51,233 nt of DNA from a virus (Duplodnaviria; Caudoviricetes): the IMG/VR virus record IMGVR_UViG_3300020045_005825, positions 1 through 51,233 of that record; one strand, given 5' to 3'. Position 1 is the first letter of the stretch. Each line of letters starts with the position of its first letter. A program made the translations under genes and the position numbers. The notes beneath the pieces are model-generated. The model made no database searches. It was given only the letters and a program-made list of their open reading frames with translations, and was not told the origin of the DNA. This document shows, piece after piece, positions 20,631 to 51,233 of this stretch.

Positions 20631-20659
20631 TAGATATTGTTTCTAAATAGTATTCTCCG

Positions 20660-20667
20660 TAGCTTTG
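20660..20667 (+). promoter_or_regulatory. Bacteroidetes -7 promoter box of moron cluster
   Basis: TAGCTTTG with TTG at 20637-20639. Confidence 0.7.
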
Positions 20668-20671
20668 TCAT

Positions 20672-20728
20672 TCGCTACAACTAACAATTTAAAGGGCATC
20701 TTTGTAGCGAGGGTGTCCTTTTACTTTT
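20672..20728 (+). promoter_or_regulatory. structured 5' leader: terminator hairpin with loop complementary to RNA 5' end
   Basis: TCGCTACAA 20672-80 complements TTGTAGCGA 20702-10 in the loop of stem 20691-700/20712-21. Confidence 0.6.
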
Positions 20729-20731
20729 ATT

Positions 20732-21127
20732 ATGGATATAATAACAGCTGCCAGTTCAATAAAGTGCGGGTCAATTCAAATTTGTTTGGATGACGATAAC
20801 GTTTTTTTATTAGAGAAAATACTTAAAAGAGCTTTTCCAAACGGACACCATTTCGATGAACGTGACAAATATTTCAGAAACACACCACAATCGGCAACGC
20901 TAATGGTTAATGGTTGCAAAAAGCCATTTAAAAACTTACAAATAGTAAACACGTCTACAATTCAAGACATTCAACTTTTAAAAGGGGAAAATGTTTTGGT
21001 TCATTTCGGCTGTAATTCTGGTTGGGTAAATGCCAGTTATTCAGGAATATTAAACGGAAAATGGGTTGTTGATATGGGCGGTGGAAGGCTTACGGATTCT
21101 TTTATTGACATTAAACACAATAAGTGA
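20732..21127 (+). CDS. hypothetical protein
   Basis: 131 aa after leader. Confidence 0.65.
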   Translation: MDIITAASSIKCGSIQICLDDDNVFLLEKILKRAFPNGHHFDERDKYFRNTPQSATLMVNGCKKPFKNLQIVNTSTIQDIQLLKGENVLVHFGCNSGWVNASYSGILNGKWVVDMGGGRLTDSFIDIKHNK

Positions 21128-21128
21128 T

Positions 21129-21482
21129 ATGGATGCAAAGGAATTGAGGATTGGGAATATTGTAAAGACCAAGAACGGCAATCTGAAATATTGGGAGGTT
21201 CAAGGTGAAGATTTGTCTTACATTGACGAAGTGCCTATGAATTATGAGCCTATCCCACTAACTGAAAAATGGTTGTTGAAGTTTGGGTTTGATAAACAAG
21301 AACACGAGGCGGGAGTATTTTACGCATTAAGTGAAATATATTTTGACGACAGATTTAAGTTGGCCATTCAGCAAGATTCAGGCTACGATTGGGTGTATGT
21401 AGGACTTGAATTGAAATACGTTCATTCTTTACAGAATATTTTTTTCGCATTGACTGGCGAGGAATTAACTTTAAAATCTTGA
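21129..21482 (+). CDS. conserved Bacteroidetes phage protein (ELRIGN family)
   Basis: Likely start MDAKELRIGN; PIPLTEKWLLKFGF and YVHSLQNIFFALTGEEL motifs. Confidence 0.75.
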   Translation: MDAKELRIGNIVKTKNGNLKYWEVQGEDLSYIDEVPMNYEPIPLTEKWLLKFGFDKQEHEAGVFYALSEIYFDDRFKLAIQQDSGYDWVYVGLELKYVHSLQNIFFALTGEELTLKS

Positions 21483-21484
21483 TT

Positions 21485-21997
21485 ATGAAACCATACGACC
21501 TATTATACAAATCAGGACATATAATTGTTCAAGCTGATTTTAAAGCCGATGAAAGTCAAATTAAAAGTAAAGACTTTTGGTTGAACCTTTGCTTACAAGG
21601 TAAGGCGCAATTCATAACCAACGCGTTTTGCATAGACGAAACTAAAACTACTCGAATCACTCACGTTCAAGTTACTCAAAAGCAAAAGTTTGACACGCTT
21701 ACCATTGATATTAAAAATCCAAAAGGCGTTATCTATATGTATCCTTGCGGTTCGCTAAACCTAGTGCATGACGACGGAGTTTTCAAAGCCTATCCGATTG
21801 AGTTTTATACAGTACTGCCGTTTGAGGGTAACACAGCAACAACTTCCGCGCAGAAAAGAATAATATTTCAAATAAAAAACGATTTCAAGGGCGAAGATTG
21901 TAATTACTATTCATCGAAATTCGATTTTAATCCAAATACGGATATAGACTATTATTTGAAACTTAGAGAACTAAAACCAAACACAGTAGCACCATGA
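21485..21997 (+). CDS. hypothetical protein
   Basis: Likely ATG start MKPYDLL; coupled to next gene. Confidence 0.65.
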   Translation: MKPYDLLYKSGHIIVQADFKADESQIKSKDFWLNLCLQGKAQFITNAFCIDETKTTRITHVQVTQKQKFDTLTIDIKNPKGVIYMYPCGSLNLVHDDGVFKAYPIEFYTVLPFEGNTATTSAQKRIIFQIKNDFKGEDCNYYSSKFDFNPNTDIDYYLKLRELKPNTVAP

Positions 21998-23154
21998 CCC
22001 CCCAACAAGCAATTAAACTATTAAAGAACGGCGAGGCGCAGTTGTATGTGGATTGTGATAGCCCTGCAACTGTAAGCATAATATTCAACAATGTATCAAA
22101 ACCAGACCCTTTTATTCGTGGAAGTTATATGCGAAAAACACTATTAGGATTTGAGGCGTATTTCCTTGATAAAACAGGATTACCAATCATAAAACTTTCC
22201 GAGATTGAAGAACAATGCGAGTGCCGAACTGAAGGAGATGCGCTATATCAATGCGATAATTGTTACGAAAAGGCAGTAAAAGACCACGTTTGCGATTACC
22301 ATTGTGACAATGGCGGCTTTTGTTTGAAACGTAGCGATGAAGCTGTGAAGCGGAATATTCGAGAAGTTAAATCATTGTTGCGACCGAATTACGGCCGAGT
22401 AGAAAAAACAGGCGAGTCAGAATATACTGTTTATTTGACAAACCCATTAAAAGTAGGGGAAACATTTAAACTTGATGAGCTATCAATTGAAAAGCCAAAA
22501 CTTAAAATATCAAAAGAAATGTTAGACTTTGGTAAATCGAATTGGTTTACTGGCGACTTGACTAATTTAGAATCACATATCCAATCACTAAAAACAACCA
22601 CCATGCAAGTAACAAACAACAACGGGGAAATCACCCTAAACGGAATTGTAATCGATAATGAAACCGCTGATAGAATTGTGGAGATAAGGAAGGAGCAGTT
22701 GGGTAAGCCTGTGTTAGAGACGGGGAAGTGGTATAAAGACAAGTACGGTAGGCTGTTTTATCCAACGAAAATACATAACGACCGCTCGTGCGATGCGTAT
22801 GGGTTTGGCTGGATTAAAAAAGAGTTTATTGCCGAAGACCATGGCCTTGTAGGATGGGAAATCAACGGCAGCGAAGTTCCCGCCACCGACCAAGAAGTAA
22901 CCGAAGCGTTGAAAAGCGAGGCGGTTAAGAGGGGACTTCACGAGGGTAGGCATCATTGGCCGGAAAAATCATATTTAGGAATTAGGCAAAGCGTATCAGA
23001 CTTTACTTATGACGATGTTTCTGGATATCCTCGCCTAACAAACTCCAACATGGAAAATGTATTCCAAAGTGGAAAATGGGCTGTTGCCGGATTGCCCACA
23101 TACACCCACGCGGAAATTGAAGCTAAGATTGGGGAGTTTAATTATAAACCTTAA
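21994..23154 (+). CDS. mosaic hypothetical protein with Cys cluster
   Basis: 386 aa; CECR..CDNC..CDYHC; internal start-like site at 22603. Confidence 0.65.
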   Translation: MTPQQAIKLLKNGEAQLYVDCDSPATVSIIFNNVSKPDPFIRGSYMRKTLLGFEAYFLDKTGLPIIKLSEIEEQCECRTEGDALYQCDNCYEKAVKDHVCDYHCDNGGFCLKRSDEAVKRNIREVKSLLRPNYGRVEKTGESEYTVYLTNPLKVGETFKLDELSIEKPKLKISKEMLDFGKSNWFTGDLTNLESHIQSLKTTTMQVTNNNGEITLNGIVIDNETADRIVEIRKEQLGKPVLETGKWYKDKYGRLFYPTKIHNDRSCDAYGFGWIKKEFIAEDHGLVGWEINGSEVPATDQEVTEALKSEAVKRGLHEGRHHWPEKSYLGIRQSVSDFTYDDVSGYPRLTNSNMENVFQSGKWAVAGLPTYTHAEIEAKIGEFNYKP

Positions 23155-23165
23155 ATATATAAATT

Positions 23166-23411
23166 ATGTTAAATCCAAAAACAGCAGCCAAACAATGGCG
23201 CAGAAGATTCAATGCCTCGGGCAAAAGAAAAGAATCAGCGGGATTCAAACCGTACGTTAAAGAGTTCAAAGAGCAAACGCTAAAAGAATCCTATTTACAC
23301 CCTGAAATACTTGCTTTGAAGTTGGCCGGCGAAAGAATGGCATCAAATACAAATCGCTTTTGGCAAGTCGCCAGAAACCGTTATTTCGATGGCCGAGTAG
23401 TCGCCGCGTAA
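23166..23411 (+). CDS. basic hypothetical protein
   Basis: 81 aa before terminator. Confidence 0.6.
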   Translation: MLNPKTAAKQWRRRFNASGKRKESAGFKPYVKEFKEQTLKESYLHPEILALKLAGERMASNTNRFWQVARNRYFDGRVVAA

Positions 23412-23439
23412 TACGATCCCAAAAAACACCACAATTATT

Positions 23440-23473
23440 TAATCCCAACCATCACAAGTTGGGATTATTTTTT
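23440..23473 (+). terminator. intrinsic terminator closing the moron cluster
   Basis: TAATCCCAAC/GTTGGGATTA plus T6. Confidence 0.8.
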
Positions 23474-23474
23474 A

Positions 23475-23482
23475 TATTTTTG
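23475..23482 (+). promoter_or_regulatory. Bacteroidetes -7 promoter box restarting tail genes
   Basis: TATTTTTG just before ATG 23488. Confidence 0.5.
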
Positions 23483-23487
23483 CCTTA

Positions 23488-24687
23488 ATGGTAACAAAGC
23501 GCATAATAGACAACGCATTCATCTTTCTAAAGCCCAGTTTAGAAGAAGTCTACCGCGCCATACAAGACCCTCAAATCGCTACCATACCCCGCTACGACTT
23601 CATTTGCCTTTCACCATACGAGAGATACCGCCAACAATCAAACAGCAGCGTTAACATTCAACTCGGGCAGGATTACGTTGTGCAGCTCGTTGACCATTGC
23701 GGCGTAGTACTCGCCACCGTAACCGATCGTGTATTCATCGAGGAATTCCAAGACAGCACGACTGGTTTAACCAACATTTACTTTGAAATGATAAACCTAC
23801 CCGCGCAGCCTGGTAAAGTTGTTCATTTGAAATTTACCGCGCCAATCCTATCAGCTAAGACCGCGTTCTATTCCAACCCGTTTGTAATTGAGCATAGGCC
23901 GAAAGACACTACCTTATTAGACTATTGGAGCAATGACGTATTCGATGGTGTTGATTATCCAACGACTGGTGCGTTGTTGCGTATCAGGGTGCTTGGGCAC
24001 TTCACGCAGCCAAAGCCACAGGAGCAAGTGCAGGTATACTCTCAAACGTCAGCAAGAGGCTCAGTAAACACGCAAATCGAATCAATAGGCACCGAATTGC
24101 AACCGTGGGCGTTTACTTGCGAGTATATTACCAACCATGGATTAAAAGCGTTCCAGTCATTTAGAAGAACGCCAATCAAGTATATCAACGGTATTCGCTG
24201 CACGTCGATGACCACTTCGTATGAGCCTGTGCTGGGCGCGTCTAACTTCTACCGCGCTGAATGGAGCGCGTTTATGGATGAAACGGAGGAATACACCGAT
24301 ACGCCACAGATTTATACGCCGTTTGCTTTGGTCTCATTGCAACCGACTGGCGTTAGAACATTGGCGGGCGTTGGTTCTACATTAACGGGGATATTCACTT
24401 CGGATATTACGCTCGGAACTGGCACTCTCACTATATACGATGATTCCGATGCGGTTATCGCTACCTTTACTGAAGCGGACGTGGTTGTTGCCGGCGCACA
24501 ATTCACCATAAATATTTCAGGTGTTTTTGTCGCAAATGGGAATTATTATTATAATTTTACGCTGGGGCTGTTTGAAGATATGTTTGGGGATAGTGTGGAG
24601 TTGACAGACGAGAGTCAAGAACTTGCAATAAACGATGGCGACTGGGACGGTTCAGATTTTGATAACGCAGACTGGTTTACAAATTAA
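23488..24687 (+). CDS. tail protein with C-terminal Ig-like (Big_5/SbsA-like) domain
   Basis: FYSNPF, LRIRVLG; C-terminal P...LTGIFTSDITLGTGTLTIY...FED pattern. Confidence 0.7.
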   Translation: MVTKRIIDNAFIFLKPSLEEVYRAIQDPQIATIPRYDFICLSPYERYRQQSNSSVNIQLGQDYVVQLVDHCGVVLATVTDRVFIEEFQDSTTGLTNIYFEMINLPAQPGKVVHLKFTAPILSAKTAFYSNPFVIEHRPKDTTLLDYWSNDVFDGVDYPTTGALLRIRVLGHFTQPKPQEQVQVYSQTSARGSVNTQIESIGTELQPWAFTCEYITNHGLKAFQSFRRTPIKYINGIRCTSMTTSYEPVLGASNFYRAEWSAFMDETEEYTDTPQIYTPFALVSLQPTGVRTLAGVGSTLTGIFTSDITLGTGTLTIYDDSDAVIATFTEADVVVAGAQFTINISGVFVANGNYYYNFTLGLFEDMFGDSVELTDESQELAINDGDWDGSDFDNADWFTN

Positions 24688-24692
24688 ATACT

Positions 24693-25193
24693 ATGAGTAC
24701 AAAAGCACAATTACAGACGCTTATAACCGCTTTCACGAACGGCGGAGCAAATACAGCTGCGGAGTTCAGGACGTTTGAAAACACTTTGTTGGATGAACTT
24801 TACGGAACAACCATCGACGAAACATCGGCAGCACCGTCAATCCTTACGCCAATTAGCGATACCAATTTTCCGTATGATTTATTCATAACTAAAAAAGGCG
24901 GTCAATTAACTATACAGGGTTGGGTTGGGAACAAAACGGGTAATTATGCGCCAAGCGGCCAAGTTTTCGCTACGTTTGACGCTGGCGAGTTTTTGCCAGA
25001 CCAAGACTATACATATAGGGCAGAAGCCATCAACGCCGTTACTCAAGAAAGAATCCGTTTACTTGTGTTTTACAATTCAGTAACAGGCAACATTGAACTG
25101 CGTTTGTCAGGCAGCGCAATGTCTGGCAGCGTTTCGGGTGTGAATAAGCAATACGACATTTATAATGCAATAATCGTTAAAACAGCAGCATAA
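24693..25193 (+). CDS. tail/fibre-associated protein
   Basis: 166 aa beta-rich, coupled gene run. Confidence 0.65.
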   Translation: MSTKAQLQTLITAFTNGGANTAAEFRTFENTLLDELYGTTIDETSAAPSILTPISDTNFPYDLFITKKGGQLTIQGWVGNKTGNYAPSGQVFATFDAGEFLPDQDYTYRAEAINAVTQERIRLLVFYNSVTGNIELRLSGSAMSGSVSGVNKQYDIYNAIIVKTAA

Positions 25194-26092
25194 TGGCTAC
25201 AACCCTACAAATGGTACAATTTCCTCAAATTAGTGCCGAATACAGCAAAAACCTATTGCCATTAGCCGCAAACTTTGAGGGTGAAATAACTTACGCTATT
25301 ACAGCGGGTGACGGCGGTGATTCTATTGTAGAGAACTCTACTTTGGAAAGTTTCGCGGGTCGTAAATCCTTGAGGGTTTTTAGCGATACGGCGTTTTCTT
25401 TAAATTTCAACGGCGGCGCAGCATTTAATCATACCGTTACCGAAGAAACACCCTTGTTTATGGCCTTAGCTATTAAGCACGGTAATTTAGCGGGTGACGA
25501 CCCGAGTTTGCAAGTGCAGGTTTTTACTAACGGGGCGCATACCGAAACGATGGTTGCTTCTATTTTCTACGAAGAACCACATATCGGGGTTTGGAATATT
25601 TCAGCAGGGCAAATACCAGCAAAAGAAATCGGGGACGTTTTGTCTTTTGCTTTTGAATTCATTTCAGGTAATGAGGACAGCGAAATATTTATTGACCGTT
25701 GGAAGTTGGAATATGACAATGCAAATCAAGGGTTGCCTACACGCTACGACTTGGTTGAGTTTGAAGTGCCAACCAATAATGGCGTTTATTTGTTGAATAT
25801 TACGGATGGAACCGCGACGTTTGCAAACGCAGATATAAGCGCAAGTGCTACACTAGATTTTGGATCAATAGCCTCTCACGATTTTGAGGACTTAACTATT
25901 GCACTAACAGGCGTTGTGTTAGGCGATACGATTGATTTAGGAATACCAGAGGCGTCGATGGTTGACCACGTGAATTATATTCCGTTCGTTTCCGATGTTG
26001 ATGAAGTTACGGTTCGCTGCCAGAATGTTGGAGGCGGTTCTGTTAACCCTGCTTCGGGCGTTTTTACCGTTTCTAAGAAAATATTATACTAA
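25193..26092 (+). CDS. putative tail fibre / carbohydrate-binding virion protein
   Basis: CBM-like N-terminal half; C-terminal SATLDFGSIA...TGVVLGD fibre-type domain. Confidence 0.65.
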   Translation: MATTLQMVQFPQISAEYSKNLLPLAANFEGEITYAITAGDGGDSIVENSTLESFAGRKSLRVFSDTAFSLNFNGGAAFNHTVTEETPLFMALAIKHGNLAGDDPSLQVQVFTNGAHTETMVASIFYEEPHIGVWNISAGQIPAKEIGDVLSFAFEFISGNEDSEIFIDRWKLEYDNANQGLPTRYDLVEFEVPTNNGVYLLNITDGTATFANADISASATLDFGSIASHDFEDLTIALTGVVLGDTIDLGIPEASMVDHVNYIPFVSDVDEVTVRCQNVGGGSVNPASGVFTVSKKILY

Positions 26093-26823
26093 TGCCAACA
26101 ACCCTACTCATAGTCAAAAATCAAGGGCAACCGTCGAATTGGAGCCACTACCGCAACAATTCGACCAATGCGCTGCACTTTTCCGCGTTCAGGATTTCTA
26201 TTGAAGCGGGCGATTTCCAGATTGAGAAGATCAATGCGGGAAAGTTGGACAAGGTTCTTTGGAGCAATGTGACGGTAATGGATGATAGTAGCGGGACACC
26301 AGTCACCTACACACCAACGTCACCCATCGACCTCGCTAATATTTTGGAGGGGTTGGGGTATCCGGCTTATAATACGGGCGGATACGAGAACAGATTCCTA
26401 GTCGTTAGAAGCATAAACGATGGGGATATGACTTTTGCGGCGGGTGACGAGAAAAGAAAGTTTTTAGTCACTAAAGGGTCGGGTGACGCTGATGCGGATT
26501 TGACCTTTACAATACCAAGTGGTGTATTCAAAAAAGGCGATGAACTGATGGTTTGGACTATTGGAGAGGGTGTTTCAAGTCTTTCTTACGGCGGCGGTTC
26601 GGTAAGTATTACCAAATTTACAACACAGTATTTCAACGACTTTACAATGGCTAGGATTCTTTGTTTCGATACGGACGTTTTCTGCATCACTTTTGAATCA
26701 GGCAACGCATTATCGGTCGATACGGCCAACGATTTCGCAAATGATGCGGCTGCGGCCGCGGGAGGCATACAAATAGGGCAAGGCTATCACAATAGCGGTG
26801 CCGCAAGGATACGTTTAACATAA
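26092..26823 (+). CDS. tail-associated structural protein
   Basis: C-terminal FANDAAAAAGGIQIGQGYH motif. Confidence 0.65.
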   Translation: MPTTLLIVKNQGQPSNWSHYRNNSTNALHFSAFRISIEAGDFQIEKINAGKLDKVLWSNVTVMDDSSGTPVTYTPTSPIDLANILEGLGYPAYNTGGYENRFLVVRSINDGDMTFAAGDEKRKFLVTKGSGDADADLTFTIPSGVFKKGDELMVWTIGEGVSSLSYGGGSVSITKFTTQYFNDFTMARILCFDTDVFCITFESGNALSVDTANDFANDAAAAAGGIQIGQGYHNSGAARIRLT

Positions 26824-26835
26824 AACAACAACACA

Positions 26836-27453
26836 ATGGCATACAATTTCACGGAATCAGGCAATTACATATATGTATCGGATTCAAACAGACCCGACGC
26901 GAATTACAACGGGGCGAAAAGCAAAGTAACGGGGTTCATTCTCGGAACAACACCCGACCCAGTTGTTAGACTAAATGGGATGCAGTCGGCACCGTCAACT
27001 GATTTACCAAACAATGGTATGTTGCTATCCGAGTGCGAAATCGGAGGCGTTGCAGCTACCGAGGAAACAATGACAACTTTCTTAGAGACGTACACAGGGG
27101 GAAAGTCTAGCGCCGGGGATTCGGCGTTGATTTACGAGGGGTATTTAGTGTCTCAAACAGATACGGACGCGCCAGTAGTTTCTTGGTTGGGTGCCGATGG
27201 CGGAATAACAATGGCTTATGTAACAGAGGGAGGATATGCTTTTCAGAAAACAGGGCTATTTGATTCGGCTAAAGTGTTTTTTGACACAACTCCTTTTGAG
27301 GGGGCAACTACCACCGCTTTATTTGTTTTGATTCCAGACTACGAGTCGCAGTCTCCAGACGGACTATACATTAAATGTCAAAAAATAACAGATGCAACAT
27401 TGCACGACAATGAAGTAAACAACGTCCGATTCAGGATAACAATTAAACAGTAA
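26836..27453 (+). CDS. tail-associated structural protein
   Basis: 205 aa; YLVSQTDTDAP motif. Confidence 0.6.
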   Translation: MAYNFTESGNYIYVSDSNRPDANYNGAKSKVTGFILGTTPDPVVRLNGMQSAPSTDLPNNGMLLSECEIGGVAATEETMTTFLETYTGGKSSAGDSALIYEGYLVSQTDTDAPVVSWLGADGGITMAYVTEGGYAFQKTGLFDSAKVFFDTTPFEGATTTALFVLIPDYESQSPDGLYIKCQKITDATLHDNEVNNVRFRITIKQ

Positions 27454-27472
27454 CTTTAAATTTTTCATAGGT

Positions 27473-27832
27473 ATGAGAAGATTTTTTTACGGTAACATTA
27501 GCCAAGACGGTGACAATTTACCAACGATTACAGGAAGCGGAGATTTTTGCATCACAGTAGAGCAAGCCGCTATTGAAGTGACCGAAAACGTATTTGAAAA
27601 CGTTGCAGGAAGCTTCTTTTTGCGAAGTGACGGTAATTTTGTCGAAGGACAATGTGGTGTTATTTTTCAAACATCACAAGGCGCTTACGGCTATCCTAAC
27701 GGGATTTACACCAACCACGACGACACGCCTAACAGGATCGCTTTTTTCACAGTTGATGAAAATGGGACGCCTCGTAACGAAATTGTAAAAGGCTCCGCTT
27801 TCATCGCATGGACTGATGTAGAAGTAGAGTAA
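27473..27832 (+). CDS. tail-associated protein
   Basis: 119 aa; ISQDGDNLP resembles VSQTDTDAP in the preceding gene. Confidence 0.6.
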   Translation: MRRFFYGNISQDGDNLPTITGSGDFCITVEQAAIEVTENVFENVAGSFFLRSDGNFVEGQCGVIFQTSQGAYGYPNGIYTNHDDTPNRIAFFTVDENGTPRNEIVKGSAFIAWTDVEVE

Positions 27833-27834
27833 AA

Positions 27835-28008
27835 ATGACCCACCGCAACCAACAACGGATAATCTACGCACTGGTGTTCTTGTGCTTTATGTTGATTGCC
27901 GTTGTGAATTGCAAGGGCGATACAAGACTTGACAACCCTTATAAAAACGTAATAGAAAATGGAAATGACATTAAAAAACGCAGTAATCCTGCAAGTGGAC
28001 AAGCCTAA
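27835..28008 (+). CDS. small putative lipoprotein (57 aa, not in ORF track)
   Basis: MTHRNQQRIIYALVFLCFMLIAVVN-CKGD signal/lipobox-like. Confidence 0.45.
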   Translation: MTHRNQQRIIYALVFLCFMLIAVVNCKGDTRLDNPYKNVIENGNDIKKRSNPASGQA

Positions 28009-28144
28009 AGCCGAACTAACCGAGCAGGATAGGTTGGACATTGACGCTCGAGTTGATGAATATTGGGAGAAAAACGATTTAGACGTGGTTGTGATTGATA
28101 GTGACCGAGTATTTATCGGCCAGAACCCCAGAAGTCACCAATGA
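27959..28144 (+). CDS. hypothetical protein
   Basis: 61 aa acidic, ATGA coupling to next gene. Confidence 0.55.
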   Translation: MEMTLKNAVILQVDKPKAELTEQDRLDIDARVDEYWEKNDLDVVVIDSDRVFIGQNPRSHQ

Positions 28145-28584
28145 ACCCGAAAACGTTCATAATAGCAATAGGGCTGATAATAATCTTATCGGCCTTTGTT
28201 AATTTAGGCAACTTCTGGGAGTATTGCTTTATGCTCGTGGACGTGATTTGCTGGGAGGTTGTTTACGTTGTATTGACCATTGCGTACATTCAGTCGGTCG
28301 GGCATAGAAACTGTCTTAAATGGGCTAATTTCGTTTATTCGGCTTTGTTGTCGATTATTCTGGCAAGCGGTTTGCTCGACATAGTGTATCAGGCATACGC
28401 AACAGTAGTAAGGATTGAAGTCGGCACGAACGTTCGCGGATGGGATTACTATTCCGAGGCCGCGCGATTGATTGATAAAGGACAGCCTTTGTATATTTGT
28501 TCGCATAACTTTACGTTGGGGTTGGTAGCGATTGTATTGTTCCTTTTCATTTTCTGCTCCGGTTGGTTGTATGGTAAGAAATAA
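28141..28584 (+). CDS. multi-pass membrane protein
   Basis: About four hydrophobic segments. Confidence 0.65.
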   Translation: MNPKTFIIAIGLIIILSAFVNLGNFWEYCFMLVDVICWEVVYVVLTIAYIQSVGHRNCLKWANFVYSALLSIILASGLLDIVYQAYATVVRIEVGTNVRGWDYYSEAARLIDKGQPLYICSHNFTLGLVAIVLFLFIFCSGWLYGKK

Positions 28585-28588
28585 TTCA

Positions 28589-28661
28589 TATATTTGAATC
28601 AGTTTCATGATTGATTTAAAATAGTTAGGGATTAAGCCGTTATTATGTAGCGGCTTTTTTT
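28589..28661 (+). ncRNA. candidate small RNA unit 1 (promoter, ~60 nt, terminator)
   Basis: TTG-N19-TATATTTG promoter, no + ORF, terminator AAGCCGTTAT/GTAGCGGCTT plus T run. Confidence 0.5.
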
Positions 28662-28662
28662 G

Positions 28663-28771
28663 TACATTTACAATCGGTTAAGCTGTGCAACAAGAATCGG
28701 GTATTTCCGATTCAGTTTCATTCGTTTGATTTACATTCATAGAATCCGCTGCTCCTACGTGGCGGATTTTT
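28663..28771 (+). ncRNA. candidate small RNA unit 2
   Basis: TACATTTA promoter variant, hairpin GAATCGG/CCGATTC, TCAGTTTCAT shared with unit 1, terminator AATCCGCTGC/GTGGCGGATT. Confidence 0.45.
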
Positions 28772-28811
28772 AATTTAGAATGGTTCTTTGGAAAGTATTT
28801 TGTAAATTTGC

Positions 28812-29033
28812 TTTGTTCTTATGTAAATCATAACACAAATCACTTTCTATCTGTGGGCTTCTTGAGACTTGCCCGATAGTGGTAGAGGAAAAATGAGTTG
28901 AGACCGAATTCCAATCGGGCGTTGTTTATGATTTTTCGGTCAAGCACAAATAATAGTTGGGGTTGGCGACCCATCAGCCGAACCATTGGAACGGCTAGGA
29001 ACCAAGCCCCTCGATTAATTTCAGGGGCTTTTT
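28812..29033 (+). ncRNA. candidate ~220-nt pseudoknotted structured RNA
   Basis: TAAATTTG at 28803-10; four long-range helices, two hairpins, terminator 29004-29033. Confidence 0.6.
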
Positions 29034-29055
29034 GCATTTATATGAATGGAATTTT

Positions 29056-29063
29056 TATCTTTG
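29056..29063 (+). promoter_or_regulatory. Bacteroidetes -7 promoter box
   Basis: TATCTTTG after terminator. Confidence 0.6.
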
Positions 29064-29089
29064 GGCATAATAACCTAAATAACAACGAT

Positions 29090-29149
29090 ATGAAAACGCA
29101 AGACACAGTTATTGGAGCAATCACTATCAACGACATAATCGACGGATAA
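29090..29149 (+). CDS. 19-aa peptide MKTQDTVIGAITINDIIDG
   Basis: First ATG in good context after promoter 29056; abuts next gene. Confidence 0.4.
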   Translation: MKTQDTVIGAITINDIIDG

Positions 29150-29150
29150 C

Positions 29151-29342
29151 ATGGGCTTAAATATCAAAAGGAAACGGAACTGGTTTACTGGAAAATTAGA
29201 GTGGAAATGGAACCTTACAGCCAAGAACCACAAGGTAATAATCCCTATGAGTGAGGGCTATAACAATGAAGCTGATATGGTTCATAATATTAAGATAAGT
29301 TCTGAAACATTGATTAATGAAATAAAAAGATTGTCGTTATGA
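29151..29342 (+). CDS. YegP/DUF1508-like protein
   Basis: WKWNLTAKNHKVI..SEGY.N..D....I pattern. Confidence 0.65.
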   Translation: MGLNIKRKRNWFTGKLEWKWNLTAKNHKVIIPMSEGYNNEADMVHNIKISSETLINEIKRLSL

Positions 29343-29701
29343 ATAGTCGCACACTACTACACGTATTAGTCGGAACTGCAGCCTGTTTCGATATTTTTTG
29401 CATTTTTGGATTCGTTACCGAATTCCCCGGGCTTGAAAAATGGATCGGTTCATTCCTGATATCGCTGGTACTCATTGGCGGCGCAGGTATGTATTGGGAA
29501 ATGAAGCTGCAAGACTTATTTGGGTCTAAATTCGATTGGCTTGATGTTTTGGCAGCTGCAGTTGTCGGGAATGCAGTCGGGGTCGTGTTAGGCAATTTGT
29601 GGCCTAGCAATATTTGGCTGCTATGGTCGTTAAACGTTGCCTCAATATTCTTTGTCGGGCGCGACTTGGTAAAATACTATAACATCAAACACAAAGCCTG
29701 A
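29339..29701 (+). CDS. membrane protein (holin-like)
   Basis: Four hydrophobic segments, FDWLD motif. Confidence 0.6.
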   Translation: MNSRTLLHVLVGTAACFDIFCIFGFVTEFPGLEKWIGSFLISLVLIGGAGMYWEMKLQDLFGSKFDWLDVLAAAVVGNAVGVVLGNLWPSNIWLLWSLNVASIFFVGRDLVKYYNIKHKA

Positions 29702-29784
29702 TGCCGATACTATTTGGAATAGCGATAATTTTAAGCGTTGTAATCGGCTGCGAGGCGGCTATATATTTTAAGAGAAAAGCATGA
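29701..29784 (+). CDS. 27-aa single-TM peptide
   Basis: MPILFGIAIILSVVIGCEAAIYFKRKA*, coupled on both sides (TGATG, ATGA). Confidence 0.55.
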   Translation: MPILFGIAIILSVVIGCEAAIYFKRKA

Positions 29785-30008
29785 TAATCGCCAAAGAAAA
29801 CATCAAGCCTATACTCGCGTTCACAATAGTAATATTGGGATTCGCTTATTTTTTCCTTACTACATTCACGGGCGTAAAGCCAAACGACCAGATACTAATC
29901 GCCATTGTTGGAACGATGGGGTTAGCCACAGGATATTACTTCGGTAATAGCTCGGGTAGTGCTGCGAAGGACGCAACCATTACCGATTTAACCAAAAAAC
30001 AAGAATAA
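29781..30008 (+). CDS. holin-like 2-TM protein
   Basis: GYYFGNSSGS..KD motif. Confidence 0.7.
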   Translation: MIIAKENIKPILAFTIVILGFAYFFLTTFTGVKPNDQILIAIVGTMGLATGYYFGNSSGSAAKDATITDLTKKQE

Positions 30009-30009
30009 A

Positions 30010-30177
30010 ATGCAAAAGACCACATTATTCGGAGCGATTTTAGGAGGTTTGGTATTTATCCAGACATTTACCGGAACCGAAGCGTTCGACATTTCAAAAG
30101 ATTGGCTTCAGCTAGTCGTTGGTGTAGGTATTGCCGTGCTTGGCTATGTAGCCAAAGACGACACGCCAGCCAAGTAA
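30010..30177 (+). CDS. holin-like 2-TM protein (55 aa, not in ORF track)
   Basis: MQKTTLFGAILGG...LGYVAKD. Confidence 0.7.
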   Translation: MQKTTLFGAILGGLVFIQTFTGTEAFDISKDWLQLVVGVGIAVLGYVAKDDTPAK

Positions 30178-30182
30178 CACCC

Positions 30183-30210
30183 AAGGCGCGTTCCTACTCG
30201 CGCCTTTTTT
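30183..30210 (+). terminator. intrinsic terminator
   Basis: AAGGCGCG/CGCGCCTT plus T run. Confidence 0.8.
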
Positions 30211-30231
30211 AATGCCTCAAACTACAACAAT

Positions 30232-30576
30232 ATGCCAAACAGTCCGAGAAGTTCATGGGATGCTTTATTTGAGTTTTTCGGTTTAAGCAATGGTCGAAAC
30301 AAGTTAAAGTTTGCCATATTCATTATAATAGCCCTTTGCGTTTTCGTAACTTGTAAGGTAGCGTTTTATGGACTTACAATAGTTGAAAAGTTCGTAGACA
30401 AAACAATAGACGACAACGCCAGGCTACGGCTTGAATTGAAAGAGAAAGATGCAACGATTGAAAAACAGGCCAATGACATTACAACCATTAAACTAAAATA
30501 CTTTGATTGCATGAGATCAAACAAGAAAATCGATACGCTGATTAAATACATCAAGGATGATAAGAAAAGCAATTGA
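30232..30576 (+). CDS. TM plus coiled-coil protein (holin or i-spanin-like)
   Basis: One TM then coiled coil, in lysis region. Confidence 0.6.
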   Translation: MPNSPRSSWDALFEFFGLSNGRNKLKFAIFIIIALCVFVTCKVAFYGLTIVEKFVDKTIDDNARLRLELKEKDATIEKQANDITTIKLKYFDCMRSNKKIDTLIKYIKDDKKSN

Positions 30577-30763
30577 AATATTATGTATTTTAGGGATGCT
30601 GTTTTTTCTTTGCAGCGATACCACCATTGATAAACTGGAAATACCAGTTGAGCCCGTTGTAATTCATCATGCACCAGGCGACAACATTAACGTTGAAATT
30701 AACCGACTTGAGCAGGAACGCGATCGGAAATTAACCGAGGCGTTGGAGCTTTTGTTTAAATAA
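30557..30763 (+). CDS. putative lipoprotein (o-spanin-like)
   Basis: LGMLFFL-CSD; overlaps upstream TM gene. Confidence 0.5.
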   Translation: MIRKAIEILCILGMLFFLCSDTTIDKLEIPVEPVVIHHAPGDNINVEINRLEQERDRKLTEALELLFK

Positions 30764-30769
30764 CCAAAG

Positions 30770-31162
30770 ATGGAACTAACAGTAAAAAGAACAACAGCCA
30801 CGAAACGCTCAACGATGGGCGAATTATACATCAACGGTAAATTCGAGTGCTACACACTCGAGGATGTTGAGCGGGCCGAAAAGATTAAAGGACAAACCGC
30901 AATATCTAAAGGCCGGTACGAAGTTAAAATAACGATGTCTAATCGCTTCAAAAAGGAATTGCCTATCTTGTTGAACGTTCCGAATTTTGAAGGCGTTAGG
31001 ATTCATTCTGGAAATACCTCTGAGCAGACCGAGGGCTGCATTTTGCTTGGCCGAACCAAATCAGCAGACTTTATCGGAGAGTCGCGTTTGGCAATGGATA
31101 CGTTTATGCCTAAACTAGCGGCAGCATTGAAAACCGAGCGGGTGTTTATTACGGTGGTGTGA
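30770..31162 (+). CDS. putative endolysin, DUF5675 family
   Basis: STMGELY..CYTLED..VPNFEGVRIHSGNT...TEGCILLG. Confidence 0.85.
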   Translation: MELTVKRTTATKRSTMGELYINGKFECYTLEDVERAEKIKGQTAISKGRYEVKITMSNRFKKELPILLNVPNFEGVRIHSGNTSEQTEGCILLGRTKSADFIGESRLAMDTFMPKLAAALKTERVFITVV

Positions 31163-31187
31163 TAACTGCCTTGCTTGTGTTTACTTC

Positions 31188-31213
31188 AACCACCTCAATC
31201 GGGGTGGTTTTTT
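31188..31213 (+). terminator. intrinsic terminator
   Basis: AACCACCTC/GGGGTGGTT plus T run. Confidence 0.85.
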
Positions 31214-31286
31214 ATTTGGAATGATTCTATATTACAAAATTAGTGGGCACGTTTTTGCGTGGGTACGGAAATGTTTTGTAGTTTTA
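31214..31286 (+). promoter_or_regulatory. early promoter region with Fur-like palindrome and GTGGGYACG direct repeats
   Basis: ATTTGGAATGATTCTATAT; GTGGGCACG 31243 and GTGGGTACG 31259; TAGTTTTA. Confidence 0.5.
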
Positions 31287-31314
31287 CGGTATCAAACTAA
31301 AAGATATAGAAATT

Positions 31315-31587
31315 ATGGAAACCTGCTTAAAAACAACAGTCCTTAAAGCCTCAAGAAAAGCAGCTTTGGACGTAGCTAATTCAGTAAGGCAATACAAACC
31401 GTTTCAAATAATCGAGGAAGGCAAAGATATTACGATAAAAGCGCCTCTAAAAGATAATGCCGGTACCTGGATTAAAAATGAGGAAACTGGTAAAATCAAA
31501 AGGTTTGTTATAATGGAGTACAAAGATAACAACGGGCTACCCACCTTAAAGTACAATCCAGAAGTAATCACTATCGAAATACAATAA
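31315..31587 (+). CDS. hypothetical protein
   Basis: First gene of early operon. Confidence 0.65.
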   Translation: METCLKTTVLKASRKAALDVANSVRQYKPFQIIEEGKDITIKAPLKDNAGTWIKNEETGKIKRFVIMEYKDNNGLPTLKYNPEVITIEIQ

Positions 31588-31589
31588 CC

Positions 31590-31799
31590 ATGAAACAACC
31601 ACCCAAACTCCTATTCGGCAAATATCGCTACTCCGAATCCGACATACAAAACCACGGCGGGCTTGCCAATCTTAAAAAGGCGATCCTTGCAGCGCGCAAC
31701 CTTGACAAAGACGAACTCGACAAACTAACAGCCCGCCTATCCAAATCCGCGCAACAGGAAGCGATGGAGAGGAGTGCGGCGGTTGATACTAACGATTAA
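31590..31799 (+). CDS. small hypothetical protein, possible autoregulator
   Basis: 69 aa; KYRYSESDIQNHGGLANLKK. Confidence 0.55.
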   Translation: MKQPPKLLFGKYRYSESDIQNHGGLANLKKAILAARNLDKDELDKLTARLSKSAQQEAMERSAAVDTND

Positions 31800-41596: not shown

Positions 41597-43909
41597 ATGT
41601 TAGATAGAAACAAACTGCAAAAATTCCACGAACACTTTTCACTTTTAACGGTTGGCGAAGATAAAAAGCCGAACTTTAAATGGAAGCCTAACCAGAACGA
41701 CAAGTTACCATTCGATAAATTTTACAAGAACTTTGAGTACAAAGGAGGAATTAAGTTTGAGGACGGAACCGAACTACCTCCTACCACCAACTTTGGAATA
41801 ATTACGGGGTACGATCATTTGGAATGTATCGATGTAGATTTAAAGGTTTTCTCTACCGCTATTGAGCAGAAAGAGTTTTGGGAGGAATACATCGGACACC
41901 TCAAGGATAACATTCTTGATTTCGATGAAAAGATAGTCGTTTACAAAACTAAGAACGCCGGTTATCATTTGCTCTACAAATCAAAAAGGGTGCAGGGCAA
42001 TTTAAAAATTGCCGCTTTAAAAGGTCATACAGAAGCCGTTATAGAAACTCGCGGGATAGGAGGTTACATTTTTGTTTACCCTGAAAACAAGGTTAGTAAA
42101 AAGTCATATTTTGAAATAGATTATATTTCAGATCAAGACAGGGAAATTATAATGAGCTTTTCAAAAATGTATAATTACATCGATGAAAAGCCAGTCGAGC
42201 CGGTTAAAAAGAAAACCGAATATCAAGAAGGCGAGATTACGCCGTGGCAGGATTACAACGAAAAGACCGACATTTTAGAACTGATTGCCGATGAATTTTC
42301 AATACCGCCACGAGGTGTTAAAAGCAAGTTTACACTTGTAAAAAGGTTTGGCGCAACTTCGCCACACTCGGGTTATGTTTTTAAAGATAGTGGGTGCTTA
42401 TATCTTTTCTCTACCGGTACGATTTACGACCACCAGAAACTCATAACGCCGTTCATTGCCTACGCAACGAAATTTCACAATAAGGACTTTTCAGCAGCAG
42501 CTAAAGAACTTTACAATAAAGGATATGGGTCAAGGCTAAAAAAAGTTATTGAGGAAAAACAAAAATCTTTGCCATCAAACGAGGCCTTGATGACTGAGTA
42601 CAATTACAATAAATCAGACTTGGTTTTCCCGATTGAGATATTTCCAAAGCCAATACAAAGCTATATTTTGGAGTGTAATTCAAAGTTAGACGGTAATATT
42701 GATTTTATGGGATGCAGTATGTTGTGGTTAATATCACTATGTGTTGGCAACTCGATTGAAATTCAGATAAAATCGGGTTGGGTAGAAAAACCATGCGTTT
42801 GGATGGCCATGGTGGGAAAAGCCGGTATAGGTAAAACACCTTCAATAAATAACATAATATTTCCTCTAAAGAAAATAAACAGCAAGGAAATTAAAATGTA
42901 TTTAAAGGAGCTTGAAAAATTCGAGTTCTACGACAACTTAAAGGAAAAGGAAAAGGCAGATTATACCGAGGTCAAAAAACCAAAAAAGCAACAATTCATT
43001 GCCAATGATATTACGCTTGAGGCATTAATTGACCTGCACCAAGAGTGTGACAATGCGGTTGGTGTTTTTAAAGACGAGTTGGCCGGTTGGATGAAAGACA
43101 TGAATAAATATCGTGCAGGATCTGATAAAGAAACTTGGCTTTCTATGTGGGCAGGAGACGACATAAATCTAAACAGGTTAAGCAGGGCGGGGTCTTTTGT
43201 TGAAAATCCATTTGTACCGGTTCTTGGAGGAATACAGCCAGGGATTTTAAACGAATTTTATACCGATGAAAATAAGGATAACGGATTTATGGATAGGGTG
43301 TTGTTGTCTTTCCCTGACGCAAAAGTTGAATATTACAACGACGCTGAAATGGACGAGGACGTTTTATTGTGGTATAAGGAAAATGTAATTTTATTCTATG
43401 ACACGCTGAAATCTAAAATAAAACGCGATGACGAAGGTACAATAATACCGTTAAGGGCAAAACTTTCTCCAGAATCTTTAGTTGAATGGCGCAGGGTTTT
43501 TGACGAGTACACAAACTATCAAAACGCAGACGAAGAGAACGAATATTTAAAGTCAATGTATCCAAAACAAAAGGGATATTTAGCCCGGTTCGCTTTGTTG
43601 CTGCATATATTGAATGAGTTTTTTAGCGAAGGTATTGGCGGCGACACTCTTTTAGTGTCTAAAGAGGCAGTTTTAGGATCTGAAAAGTTAAGCAAATACT
43701 TTATTGCCACGGCTAAAAAGCTGAAAATAAATTCAGCAGAAGTAAATGGGATTAAGTCTACTTCTAAAACAGGCAAAACAAATGCAGACAAAATAAAGGC
43801 TATTTATGATGAAAATCCAGACTTTAACCGTAGCCAAACAGCAGAGGTTTTAGGAATCAGCAGGACGCAAGTAATTAGGATAGTAAACCAGATTAAAGAT
43901 GTAACATAG
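41597..43909 (+). CDS. primase-polymerase fused to DUF3987-type helicase and C-terminal HTH
   Basis: Prim-Pol motifs FGIITG, IDVD, GYH, ETRG.GGY; Walker A GKAGIGKT; DEL; RSQTAEVLGISRTQV; likely start MLDRNK. Confidence 0.85.
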   Translation: MLDRNKLQKFHEHFSLLTVGEDKKPNFKWKPNQNDKLPFDKFYKNFEYKGGIKFEDGTELPPTTNFGIITGYDHLECIDVDLKVFSTAIEQKEFWEEYIGHLKDNILDFDEKIVVYKTKNAGYHLLYKSKRVQGNLKIAALKGHTEAVIETRGIGGYIFVYPENKVSKKSYFEIDYISDQDREIIMSFSKMYNYIDEKPVEPVKKKTEYQEGEITPWQDYNEKTDILELIADEFSIPPRGVKSKFTLVKRFGATSPHSGYVFKDSGCLYLFSTGTIYDHQKLITPFIAYATKFHNKDFSAAAKELYNKGYGSRLKKVIEEKQKSLPSNEALMTEYNYNKSDLVFPIEIFPKPIQSYILECNSKLDGNIDFMGCSMLWLISLCVGNSIEIQIKSGWVEKPCVWMAMVGKAGIGKTPSINNIIFPLKKINSKEIKMYLKELEKFEFYDNLKEKEKADYTEVKKPKKQQFIANDITLEALIDLHQECDNAVGVFKDELAGWMKDMNKYRAGSDKETWLSMWAGDDINLNRLSRAGSFVENPFVPVLGGIQPGILNEFYTDENKDNGFMDRVLLSFPDAKVEYYNDAEMDEDVLLWYKENVILFYDTLKSKIKRDDEGTIIPLRAKLSPESLVEWRRVFDEYTNYQNADEENEYLKSMYPKQKGYLARFALLLHILNEFFSEGIGGDTLLVSKEAVLGSEKLSKYFIATAKKLKINSAEVNGIKSTSKTGKTNADKIKAIYDENPDFNRSQTAEVLGISRTQVIRIVNQIKDVT

Positions 43910-44136
43910 GTTACAGTAATGTTACACCCAATGTTACACCAGAAAATCAATAAACATAAAGGGTTCAAAGGTGTAACTGTAACATTTTTCAGATTTTAGA
44001 AAATAATTTTTTACTAAAAGATAAAAATAAAAATTAGGAATTTTTAAAATGTTACAGTTACAGTGAGCTTAACCCCCATAAACAAAGGAAAACAGGTGTA
44101 ACATATAGGTGTAACATATGTTACAGCGATGTTACA
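43900..44136. repeat. putative replication origin: 12 TGTAAC/GTTACA repeats around an AT-rich core
   Basis: Copies at 43900, 43910, 43921, 43933, 43972, 43978, 44051, 44057, 44097, 44110, 44120, 44131; 17-bp perfect inverted repeat 43972-88/44046-62. Confidence 0.8.
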
Positions 44137-44163
44137 GTAAAACTACTAAAAACGCATAAAATT

Positions 44164-48397: not shown

Positions 48398-48829
48398 TTA
48401 ATTTTTCCTAACGAGTGCGCGGCTAACGATTCGTGAGCTTTGAGTCCCTGATGGTGTTACCAAAACCCTGTAATATTGGTAGAGACTAGGGATTGAATAA
48501 AACGAACAGTTCTGGCTTGACACATCGGTAAGGGTAAAAGTTCCCGCGCCAGGCACATCATTGTAAACAACACCGTCGATGCTGCCTTGTAATTTCACAG
48601 TACCGGCAACAGTTCCTGTAACCTTTGTGATAATACACTGCACCGTTACAGATTGGTTCACGCCCTTGATGATTGCGTACTGCGACTTAGCTGTTGCGTC
48701 GGTAATCGTGTCGGTTGTTGCGTGCGTCGGCGTCGACAGCAAATTGCCTAAGTTTGTGATAGCTGGTCCTGTGACCTGTGCGTTGCATACCCCAGCGAAT
48801 AGCAATAGGGCAAATAATAGTTTTTTCAT
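48398..48829 (-). CDS. secreted beta-sandwich protein (moron)
   Basis: Signal peptide MKKLLFALLLFAGVCNA-Q; KLQGSIDG..Y, YQYYRV. Confidence 0.8.
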   Translation of the reverse strand: MKKLLFALLLFAGVCNAQVTGPAITNLGNLLSTPTHATTDTITDATAKSQYAIIKGVNQSVTVQCIITKVTGTVAGTVKLQGSIDGVVYNDVPGAGTFTLTDVSSQNCSFYSIPSLYQYYRVLVTPSGTQSSRIVSRALVRKN

Positions 48830-48905
48830 TTTGTTTATATTTTAAAGTTGGGGTAAAAATAGCAAAGTTTTTCGTATGTTTGTTATCCAACTAAAAATAA
48901 ATCAA

Positions 48906-51151: not shown

Positions 51152-51233
51152 ATAGGGCAAATAATAGTTTTTTCATTTTGTTTATATTTTAAAGTTGGGG
51201 TAAAAATAGCAAAGTTTTTCGTATGTTTGTTAT
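51152..51233 (+). repeat. exact 82-bp copy of 48805-48886
   Basis: ATAGGGCAAATAATAG...GTATGTTTGTTAT identical at both sites. Confidence 0.95.

Follow-up and report, generated by a model that had tools for sequence, protein, structure and literature searches.

A candidate small RNA gene with two competing predicted folds in the tail-to-lysis interval of a presumed Flavobacteriaceae phage

The stretch of DNA analysed here, referred to as the window, is a virus record of 51,233 bases that is 82% complete. PHROGs identify its terminase, portal, major head and tail genes. Among 48 records, the tail-region protein encoded at 23488-24687 matches only phages of Flavobacterium and Olleya, which makes a member of the Flavobacteriaceae very likely as the host on sequence grounds. 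Several features of the window lie away from the locus studied here. At 20632-23487, non-structural genes accompanied by a TAnnTTTG box (20660) form a block inserted amid the tail genes, and only short pieces of it match the related phage L006. The N-terminal part (about 95 residues) of the tail-region protein encoded at 26092-26823 is 81-91% identical across nine relatives and its C-terminal parts are unrelated, a pattern suggestive of a modular receptor-binding-like protein. Direct and inverted TGTAAC/GTTACA repeats cluster at 43890-44140, after the primase-helicase gene, where they probably mark a replication origin. Finally, the last 82 bases of the record (51152-51233) are repeated exactly at 48805-48886, inside the terminase-portal region. 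This copy overlaps a minus-strand ORF (48398-48829), and the repeat is either an assembly artefact or a duplication.

In the tail-to-lysis interval, a block devoid of convincing genes, about 500 bases long, separates the end of a membrane-protein gene (28584) from a DUF1508 gene (29151-29342). The membrane-protein gene is an orphan and a singleton, and the ESM Atlas gave no match of 0.9 or more for the protein upstream of the block. Downstream of the DUF1508 gene come genes that are probably holin-like, as judged from hydrophobic sequence and position, and a DUF5675 gene, whose product we take to be an endolysin. The proteins flanking the candidate RNA described below are singletons in a collection of 15 billion. 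In three syntenic phages (L009, Harreka_1 and lillamy9-1) the tail-to-lysis interval is packed with genes and shows no comparable gap. Therefore, the block, candidate RNA included, is probably an accessory cassette.

The block may hold three promoter-terminator units in a row. A box at 28589-96 stands ahead of a terminator at 28634-56. Behind a degenerate promoter box (28663-70), a plus-strand unit of two hairpins, with a terminator-like stem at its end, occupies 28676-28772 (z -5.3, 0 of 300 shuffles); folding predictions point to a second candidate small RNA. A contig from sequencing run X4 carries an intact box at the 28663-70 site and keeps the first bases of this unit. The remaining unit is the subject of this work, and the features of its RNA given below all lie on the plus strand.

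Its promoter box, TAAATTTG (28803-28810), comes after a terminator-like stem and corresponds in sequence to the TAnnTTTG box of the Bacteroidota primary sigma factor. Over 29 nt, the context of the box shares 86% identity with an intergenic sequence in the Olleya phage Harreka_1. No clear TTTG element was found upstream of it at the usual distance, and TAnnTTTG boxes are not enriched in the genome (75 matches for 64 expected). In Flavobacterium, according to PMC9723704, the box occupies positions -12 to -5, so that G28815 is the predicted +1. An intrinsic terminator lies at 29004-29033. It has an 8-bp stem (29004-11/29023-30) followed by a short T run and a pairing probability of 0.96, and was not listed by a simple terminator scan. 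Promoter and terminator together predict an RNA of about 215-220 nt, terminator included, at 28815-29033. The GC content is 44% over 28815-29003 as compared to 24-33% in three flanking spacers, and 28815-29033 contains no sense ORF of 50 amino acids or more. On the minus strand, an ORF of 65 codons (28840-29037) was called in the source collection. It is a singleton without a family, it retrieved only itself when used as a protein query, and no minus-strand TAnnTTTG box occurs between 26620 and 31235. This antisense ORF is probably spurious.

The two ends of the predicted RNA can pair with each other. The 5′ arm GTTCTTA (28815-28821) is complementary to TAGGAAC (28996-29002), which stops one base before the terminator stem. 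The resulting closing helix of 7 bp, P1, has a probability of about 0.9 for its first four pairs and was matched in 123 of 20000 shuffles. P1 does not figure in a preliminary description of this locus. Because the ends are set by promoter and terminator, independently of the helix, P1 as predicted is the strongest individual indication that the RNA gene is a discrete one. Taken together, these features make it probable that 28815-29033 is a real, uncatalogued phage small RNA gene.

The preliminary description had proposed that a 37-nt strand (28914-28950) pairs with four separate upstream segments, and all four pairings do exist in the sequence. The strand carries the 3′ arms of helices C, B, D and A. 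Helix C joins GCCCGAT (28871-77) to ATCGGGC (28914-20) by seven Watson-Crick pairs, to which a U-G pair between 28870 and 28921 is added (arms 28870-28877 and 28914-21). Helix B pairs AAATCATAA (28825-33) with TTATGATTT (28926-34) over nine base pairs and, beyond a bulged C, continues with four more between ACAA and TTGT (arms 28825-28838 and 28922-34). Helix D has seven pairs between GACCGAA (28902-08) and TTCGGTC (28935-41), with a ViennaRNA probability of 0.66-0.94. It crosses C and B, and is therefore a pseudoknot if C or B forms and the stem of a plain hairpin otherwise. The alternative helices, the two small 3′ hairpins, P5 (28958-28973) and P6 (28976-28996, adjoining P1), the terminator and the promoter box described at the same time were all found as well. 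Helix A, TTTGTTCTT (28812-20) with AAGCACAAA (28942-50), exists as a pairing with one mismatch, but its formation is excluded by P1, with which it shares bases. Its probability is 0.19 or less, and the calculated energy is -39.3 kcal/mol with P1 as compared to -36.3 kcal/mol with A, that is 3 kcal/mol better with P1. Moreover, three of the nine bases of its 5′ arm lie upstream of the predicted +1, and the arm pairs better with 28996-29002. Because P1 competes with a better energy and three bases of A precede +1, helix A probably does not form and is to be dropped from the model.

Positions 28812-39 and 28921-51 are diverged copies of one palindrome of about 28 nt, whose right arm is the 5′ arm of helix B. 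Such copies would alone give helices A and B, which may thus be by-products of two diverged palindromic repeats. The motifs TTGAGAC, GGGC and TTATG are also present twice in the stretch. This pattern of duplicated palindrome and motifs may be a switch by design, or else what is left of a duplication.

We then compared the helices with chance expectation; all shuffle and genome tests, that of the closing helix included, were framed after the helices had been seen and are post hoc. Three perfect helices of 7 bp or more, tiled along one strand, arose in 8 of 5000 local shuffles, and the genome also has such tilings at 8 places in 2042 windows. Two crossing GC-rich helices of 7 bp, as in C and D, were obtained in 3 of 5000 shuffles and at two loci in the genome, both strands considered. 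Of the 145 non-nested triples in 1.63 Mb of phage sequence (again with both strands considered), nine score as high as that of the candidate RNA; these nine are the candidate itself and eight rows from four distinct loci. By summed helix score, the candidate window ranks 24th of 2555 plus-strand windows. This score was equalled by 9 of 1000 shuffles for 28812-28950 but by 124 of 1000 for 28817-29003, the significance being lost once the 3′ part is included. The nested minimum free energy is at shuffle level (z -0.62, 56 of 200 shuffles), with z values of 0.21, -0.09 and -1.11 for three choices of boundaries. Overall, the helix set is partly beyond chance.

The core of the RNA has two competing predicted folds. 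ViennaRNA, which folds nested structures only and leaves pseudoknots outside its model, favours a fold with two hairpins, from which two of the four helices are missing; in nested folds the pair probability is 0.02 or less for helix C and 0.14 or less for helix B. The nested core consists of an alternative hairpin, H1 (28840-28890; GGGC/GCCC core, -14.5 kcal/mol), which excludes helix C, and of D as a hairpin stem, and reaches -45.7 kcal/mol. The pseudoknotted core, P1 with B and C and with the D strands left free, gives the above -39.3 kcal/mol, and the D stack contributes -13.5 kcal/mol before the pseudoknot penalty. Such penalties are roughly 7-13 kcal/mol. In these calculations the two cores lie within error of each other and the pseudoknot is not clearly better. 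Helix D is common to both folds, and H1 is predicted to form first during transcription, ahead of the synthesis of C's partner. If B, C and D were all formed, the 5-nt linker 28909-13 would have to reach from the outer end of B to the inner end of C, over a distance of 21 bp. In A-form geometry, 21 stacked base pairs span about 55 angstrom whereas a 5-nt linker covers about 40. Because the linker is too short for this span, we infer that B, C and D together would be strained in such a model, so that either the 4-bp part of B opens or the B/C junction bends sharply. The notion of an undescribed phage noncoding RNA is supported in part: an uncatalogued RNA gene is likely. The four-helix fold, as modelled, is not established, because of the low probabilities of B and C, the displacement of A, the bend needed by B, C and D together and the fact that no homologue was found in the collections searched. 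We give the use of the pseudoknot somewhat less than an even chance.

The sequence 3′ to the candidate RNA has a history of its own in the sequencing runs. A plus-strand module at 29004-29091, comprising the terminator, a TATCTTTG promoter (29056-63) and a leader, is found with 100% identity amid other flanks. In three of the four sequencing runs examined, contigs match it over 88, 92 and 59 identical bases. These short, low-depth contigs cover part or all of 29001-29092 with no differences. Upstream of the module all three carry other DNA, ending in C/A-rich CACCAC-like runs, and two of the three continue into other downstream DNA. In run X1, nothing of 23400-31600 is covered besides the module. 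By analogy with known cassettes, this suggests that 29004-29091 is a mobile PeSL-like terminator-promoter module. Because the module occurs behind other upstream DNA, the downstream genes would be independent of the RNA. A 19-codon ORF (29090-29149) lies directly behind the shared module; in run X2 its ATG is kept but the frame that follows differs. No contig of the sequencing runs lies across the body of the RNA, which has no bearing on its expression.

Relatives of the RNA body were searched with 28812-29003 as the query. In blastn against 50,697 phage records, only the terminator or the promoter matched among the matches listed; matches to the RNA body concerned eight records, all at E 2 or worse. 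Among 72,556 plasmids, a single record matched, at E 7. Pattern scans of IMG/VR gave four matches, which are one coding locus, and otherwise 0, 17 (none homologous) and 11 (no family). One pattern had no match in metagenomes and another had 20 to the promoter module, none homologous; the GTDB pattern scan had none. Two single-sequence models, R1 and R2, found nothing in 50 virus records each (0/50). Applied to 86 sources, such models retrieved the candidate alone, or the candidate and seven AT-rich sequences with E values of about 1 or worse. Searches at the DNA level hit one of 50 records, by its promoter only, and none of 38 records. Scans anchored on neighbouring genes yielded only fragments without the interval or chance matches. 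A control model, 6S-Flavo, matched nowhere and is uninformative on the sensitivity of the models. Since pattern scans detect exact matches only and models built on one sequence have little power, diverged relatives may be missed; and since the flanking proteins are singletons too, the missing relatives point to a poorly sampled phage as much as to rarity.

Other candidate structures came to light in these searches. A leader of about 100 nt was found, through its promoter match, in Flavobacteriaceae phages, namely Harreka_1, elemoF and two IMG/VR records (L148 1505-1616, L150 596-725, L022 5770-5882 and L046 103-213). It has a promoter box and a GTGGWGG motif whose partner, CCWCCAC, lies in the terminator loop; one compensatory change was seen in this pairing. 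The leader lies near replication genes in the two isolates, and Rfam matched it with no family at threshold. A 9-mer is common to the Harreka_1 leader and the candidate RNA, but the leader belongs to a distinct family. The alignment score between the two was reached by 382 of 2000 shuffles, and a model of the Harreka_1, elemoF and L022 copies, run without filters, matched nothing in 28815-29033 at E values up to 5. A long GC-rich hairpin with kissing-loop potential lies directly behind the DUF5675 stop codon and ahead of a terminator in another phage (L007 6386-6477; z -1.9, no Rfam match). Though similar to the eye, it was rejected as a relative, its score of 32-33 being within the bulk of the background (90th percentile 35) and its pairing topology being different. 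In a further phage (L013 7770-7860), a tRNA-like sequence with a T-arm and an odd body lies downstream of the lysis genes, and Rfam did not find it.

The candidate was also compared with known RNA families. tmRNA has a tRNA(Ala)-like domain with a G3-U70 pair, a T-loop, an NCCA end and a tag frame. ARAGORN found no gene; T-loop, NCCA and tag frame are absent, and the third pair of P1 is U-A rather than G-U. In RNase P RNA the conserved regions CR-I and CR-V form P4. Both motifs are absent here and Rfam shows no match. The core motifs of hammerhead and twister ribozymes are likewise absent, with no Rfam match, and for HDV-like and pistol-like ribozymes the 5-mers CCGAA and GGCGT are present in the wrong order and spacing, again with no Rfam match. 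A group I intron was rejected as well: the R and S elements are absent, only 24 nt separate C from D, and the unit has its own promoter and terminator. Overall, Rfam 15 gave no match in the window at the gathering threshold; over 28560-29120, 14 weak matches up to E 10 were all far under threshold. Six short motifs had no match in supplementary files 3-6 of PMC10690425. Searches of Rfam, the literature and these files brought up no comparable structured RNA for Flavobacteria phages.

Three functions had been put forward for the RNA, of which ribozyme and switch found no support and decoy is possible. The reading that we prefer, tentatively, is that of an independent accessory gene for an RNA of about 215 nt, which in its folded state would serve in trans to decoy a host RNA-binding protein. 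Transcription by the host RNA polymerase would be driven by the box (28803-10) and stop at the terminator (29004-30). Its ends are predicted to pair into P1, and the core would take either of two folds of similar modelled energy, H1 with D, or B and C with D as a pseudoknot. Helix D, hairpins P5 and P6 and the terminator are also predicted to form. The RNA would then act in trans, possibly by occupying, in analogy with other phage decoys, a host RNA-binding protein such as an RNA-gated anti-phage nuclease. This reading draws on an architecture that is closed and paired with itself, on a transcription unit of its own, on the accessory position and on precedent in other phages. No cognate partner was found among 13 phage proteins in PADLOC or 46 in Pfam. 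A bolder version, in which the locus represents a new class of compact ornate phage RNAs, with a closed four-way junction and a pseudoknot domain of two helices that flips between two folds, expressed from small-RNA cassettes that Flavobacteria phages swap by means of identical terminator-promoter modules, and disarming an RNA-gated defence, is rather improbable.

An ordinary small RNA, made of the nested hairpins P1, H1, D, P5 and P6 and pairing through its linkers with host mRNAs, is a rival that we hold doubtful, with roughly one chance in four. B and C would then be accidental, the twice-occurring motifs accounting for the cross-pairings. The fold preferred by ViennaRNA is indeed nested, H1 can form before C's partner exists, and Flavobacterium has independent sRNAs with predicted mRNA targets (PMC9723704). 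However, the crossing pair C/D is rare by chance and nested folds alone are no better than shuffles. The longest antisense match of the RNA within the phage is 12 nt. Because of this, and because the ends are clamped and most of the sequence pairs internally, a protein-binding RNA is slightly favoured over a base-pairing one.

Slightly less probable still is that no functional structured RNA exists, the locus being a decayed or neutral insert, or an antisense ORF, between mobile modules, with chance helices. The lack of homologues in the collections searched, the nested energy z of about 0, the unremarkable rank of the helix score, the near-chance frequency of TAnnTTTG boxes and the calling of a minus-strand gene are all compatible with it. 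In contrast, the closing-helix and pseudoknot statistics coincide within one promoter-terminator unit and the GC content is raised. Moreover, the antisense ORF lacks a family and a promoter, and the flanking proteins are singletons as well, so that missing relatives reflect poor sampling.

A new class of ribozyme, self-cleaving or otherwise catalytic, built on the B/C/D pseudoknot, is quite unlikely in our modelling. The multi-helix pseudoknot, the purine-rich linkers and the crossing order of C and D, which is that of P3 and P7 in group I introns, would suit it. However, Rfam gave no match, core motifs of known classes are absent or out of order and spacing, and self-processing is needless for an RNA with its own promoter and terminator.

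Equally unlikely is a cis-acting attenuator or riboswitch gating read-through into DUF1508 and the lysis genes. It could draw on two mutually exclusive folds and on GGGCTT (28855-60) and GGGGTT (28959-64), which are able to pair with the 5′ arm of the terminator. Within nested folds, however, the tested antiterminator has a probability of 0.0. Control in cis is disfavoured, given a stable terminator and a promoter box that belongs to the following genes themselves, in a module that also occurs behind other sequences.

Finally, an RNA anti-CRISPR (Racr), a special decoy mimicking a Bacteroidota type II-C or VI-B guide and defined by homology to the host repeat and, for Cas9, to the tracrRNA, is very improbable: a 12-mer of P6 (28980-91) is identical to part of a Bacteroides II-C repeat (PMC6390457 and PMC5609589), 28921 begins GTTGT as do both F. 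columnare repeats in PMC8092290, and rAcrIIA1 is a precedent (10.64898/2026.06.03.729762), but the 12-mer match is weak, was singled out among many repeats and sits in the 3′ part of its repeat, the host is very likely of the Flavobacteriaceae rather than Bacteroides, the strand resembling the repeat is placed 3′ to its partner, the reverse of the order in a Cas9 guide, and Rfam shows no CRISPR or tracrRNA match up to E 10.

Returning to the trans-acting decoy, phage counter-defence by RNA decoys is a class that is still small but growing, and, if real, the present unit would show that small-RNA genes move as cassettes. A short unit with predicted ends and two defined folds makes expression, fold and activity cheap to test; being a single sequence limits the weight of the finding.

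Among known RNAs, tmRNA and RNase P RNA have a stem between 5′ and 3′ ends that closes around a pseudoknotted interior. The candidate resembles them by its closing helix with an adjacent 3′ hairpin, its long-range helices and a crossing helix near the 3′ end. Among phage RNAs, pseudo-ToxI of phage phiTE is a phage-borne RNA with 36-nt tandem repeats that each fold into a pseudoknot (PMC3594212), and rAcrIIA1 is a decoy RNA beside an anti-CRISPR gene (10.64898/2026.06.03.729762). Like both, the candidate would be an intergenic, promoter-driven phage non-coding RNA, and like pseudo-ToxI it may be a pseudoknot. It differs from pseudo-ToxI in having neither 36-nt tandem repeats nor homology to a known antitoxin; among the matches listed in a repeat scan, no repeat family occurs in the stretch and only a 7-nt motif recurs at 36-nt spacing. 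Unlike rAcrIIA1, it showed, beyond the 12-nt match to the Bacteroides repeat, no homology to a known repeat or tracrRNA, and no adjacent anti-CRISPR gene was found; no antitoxin or CRISPR family matched it significantly. ROOL, GOLLD and raiA are orphan ornate RNAs; ROOL and GOLLD occur in prophages and ROOL averages 581 nt (PMC5737381). The candidate, a single sequence without covariation, is much shorter than ROOL and has no tRNA nearby, and shares with these RNAs a predicted multistem junction and pseudoknot. PeSL, finally, are terminator-promoter cassettes of T4-like phages (PMC4122927). Unlike these, 29004-29091 has a promoter of the Bacteroidota type and is present in one copy in the genome, and the likeness concerns the border of the RNA rather than the RNA; like them, it unites a terminator and a promoter common to otherwise unrelated flanking DNA.
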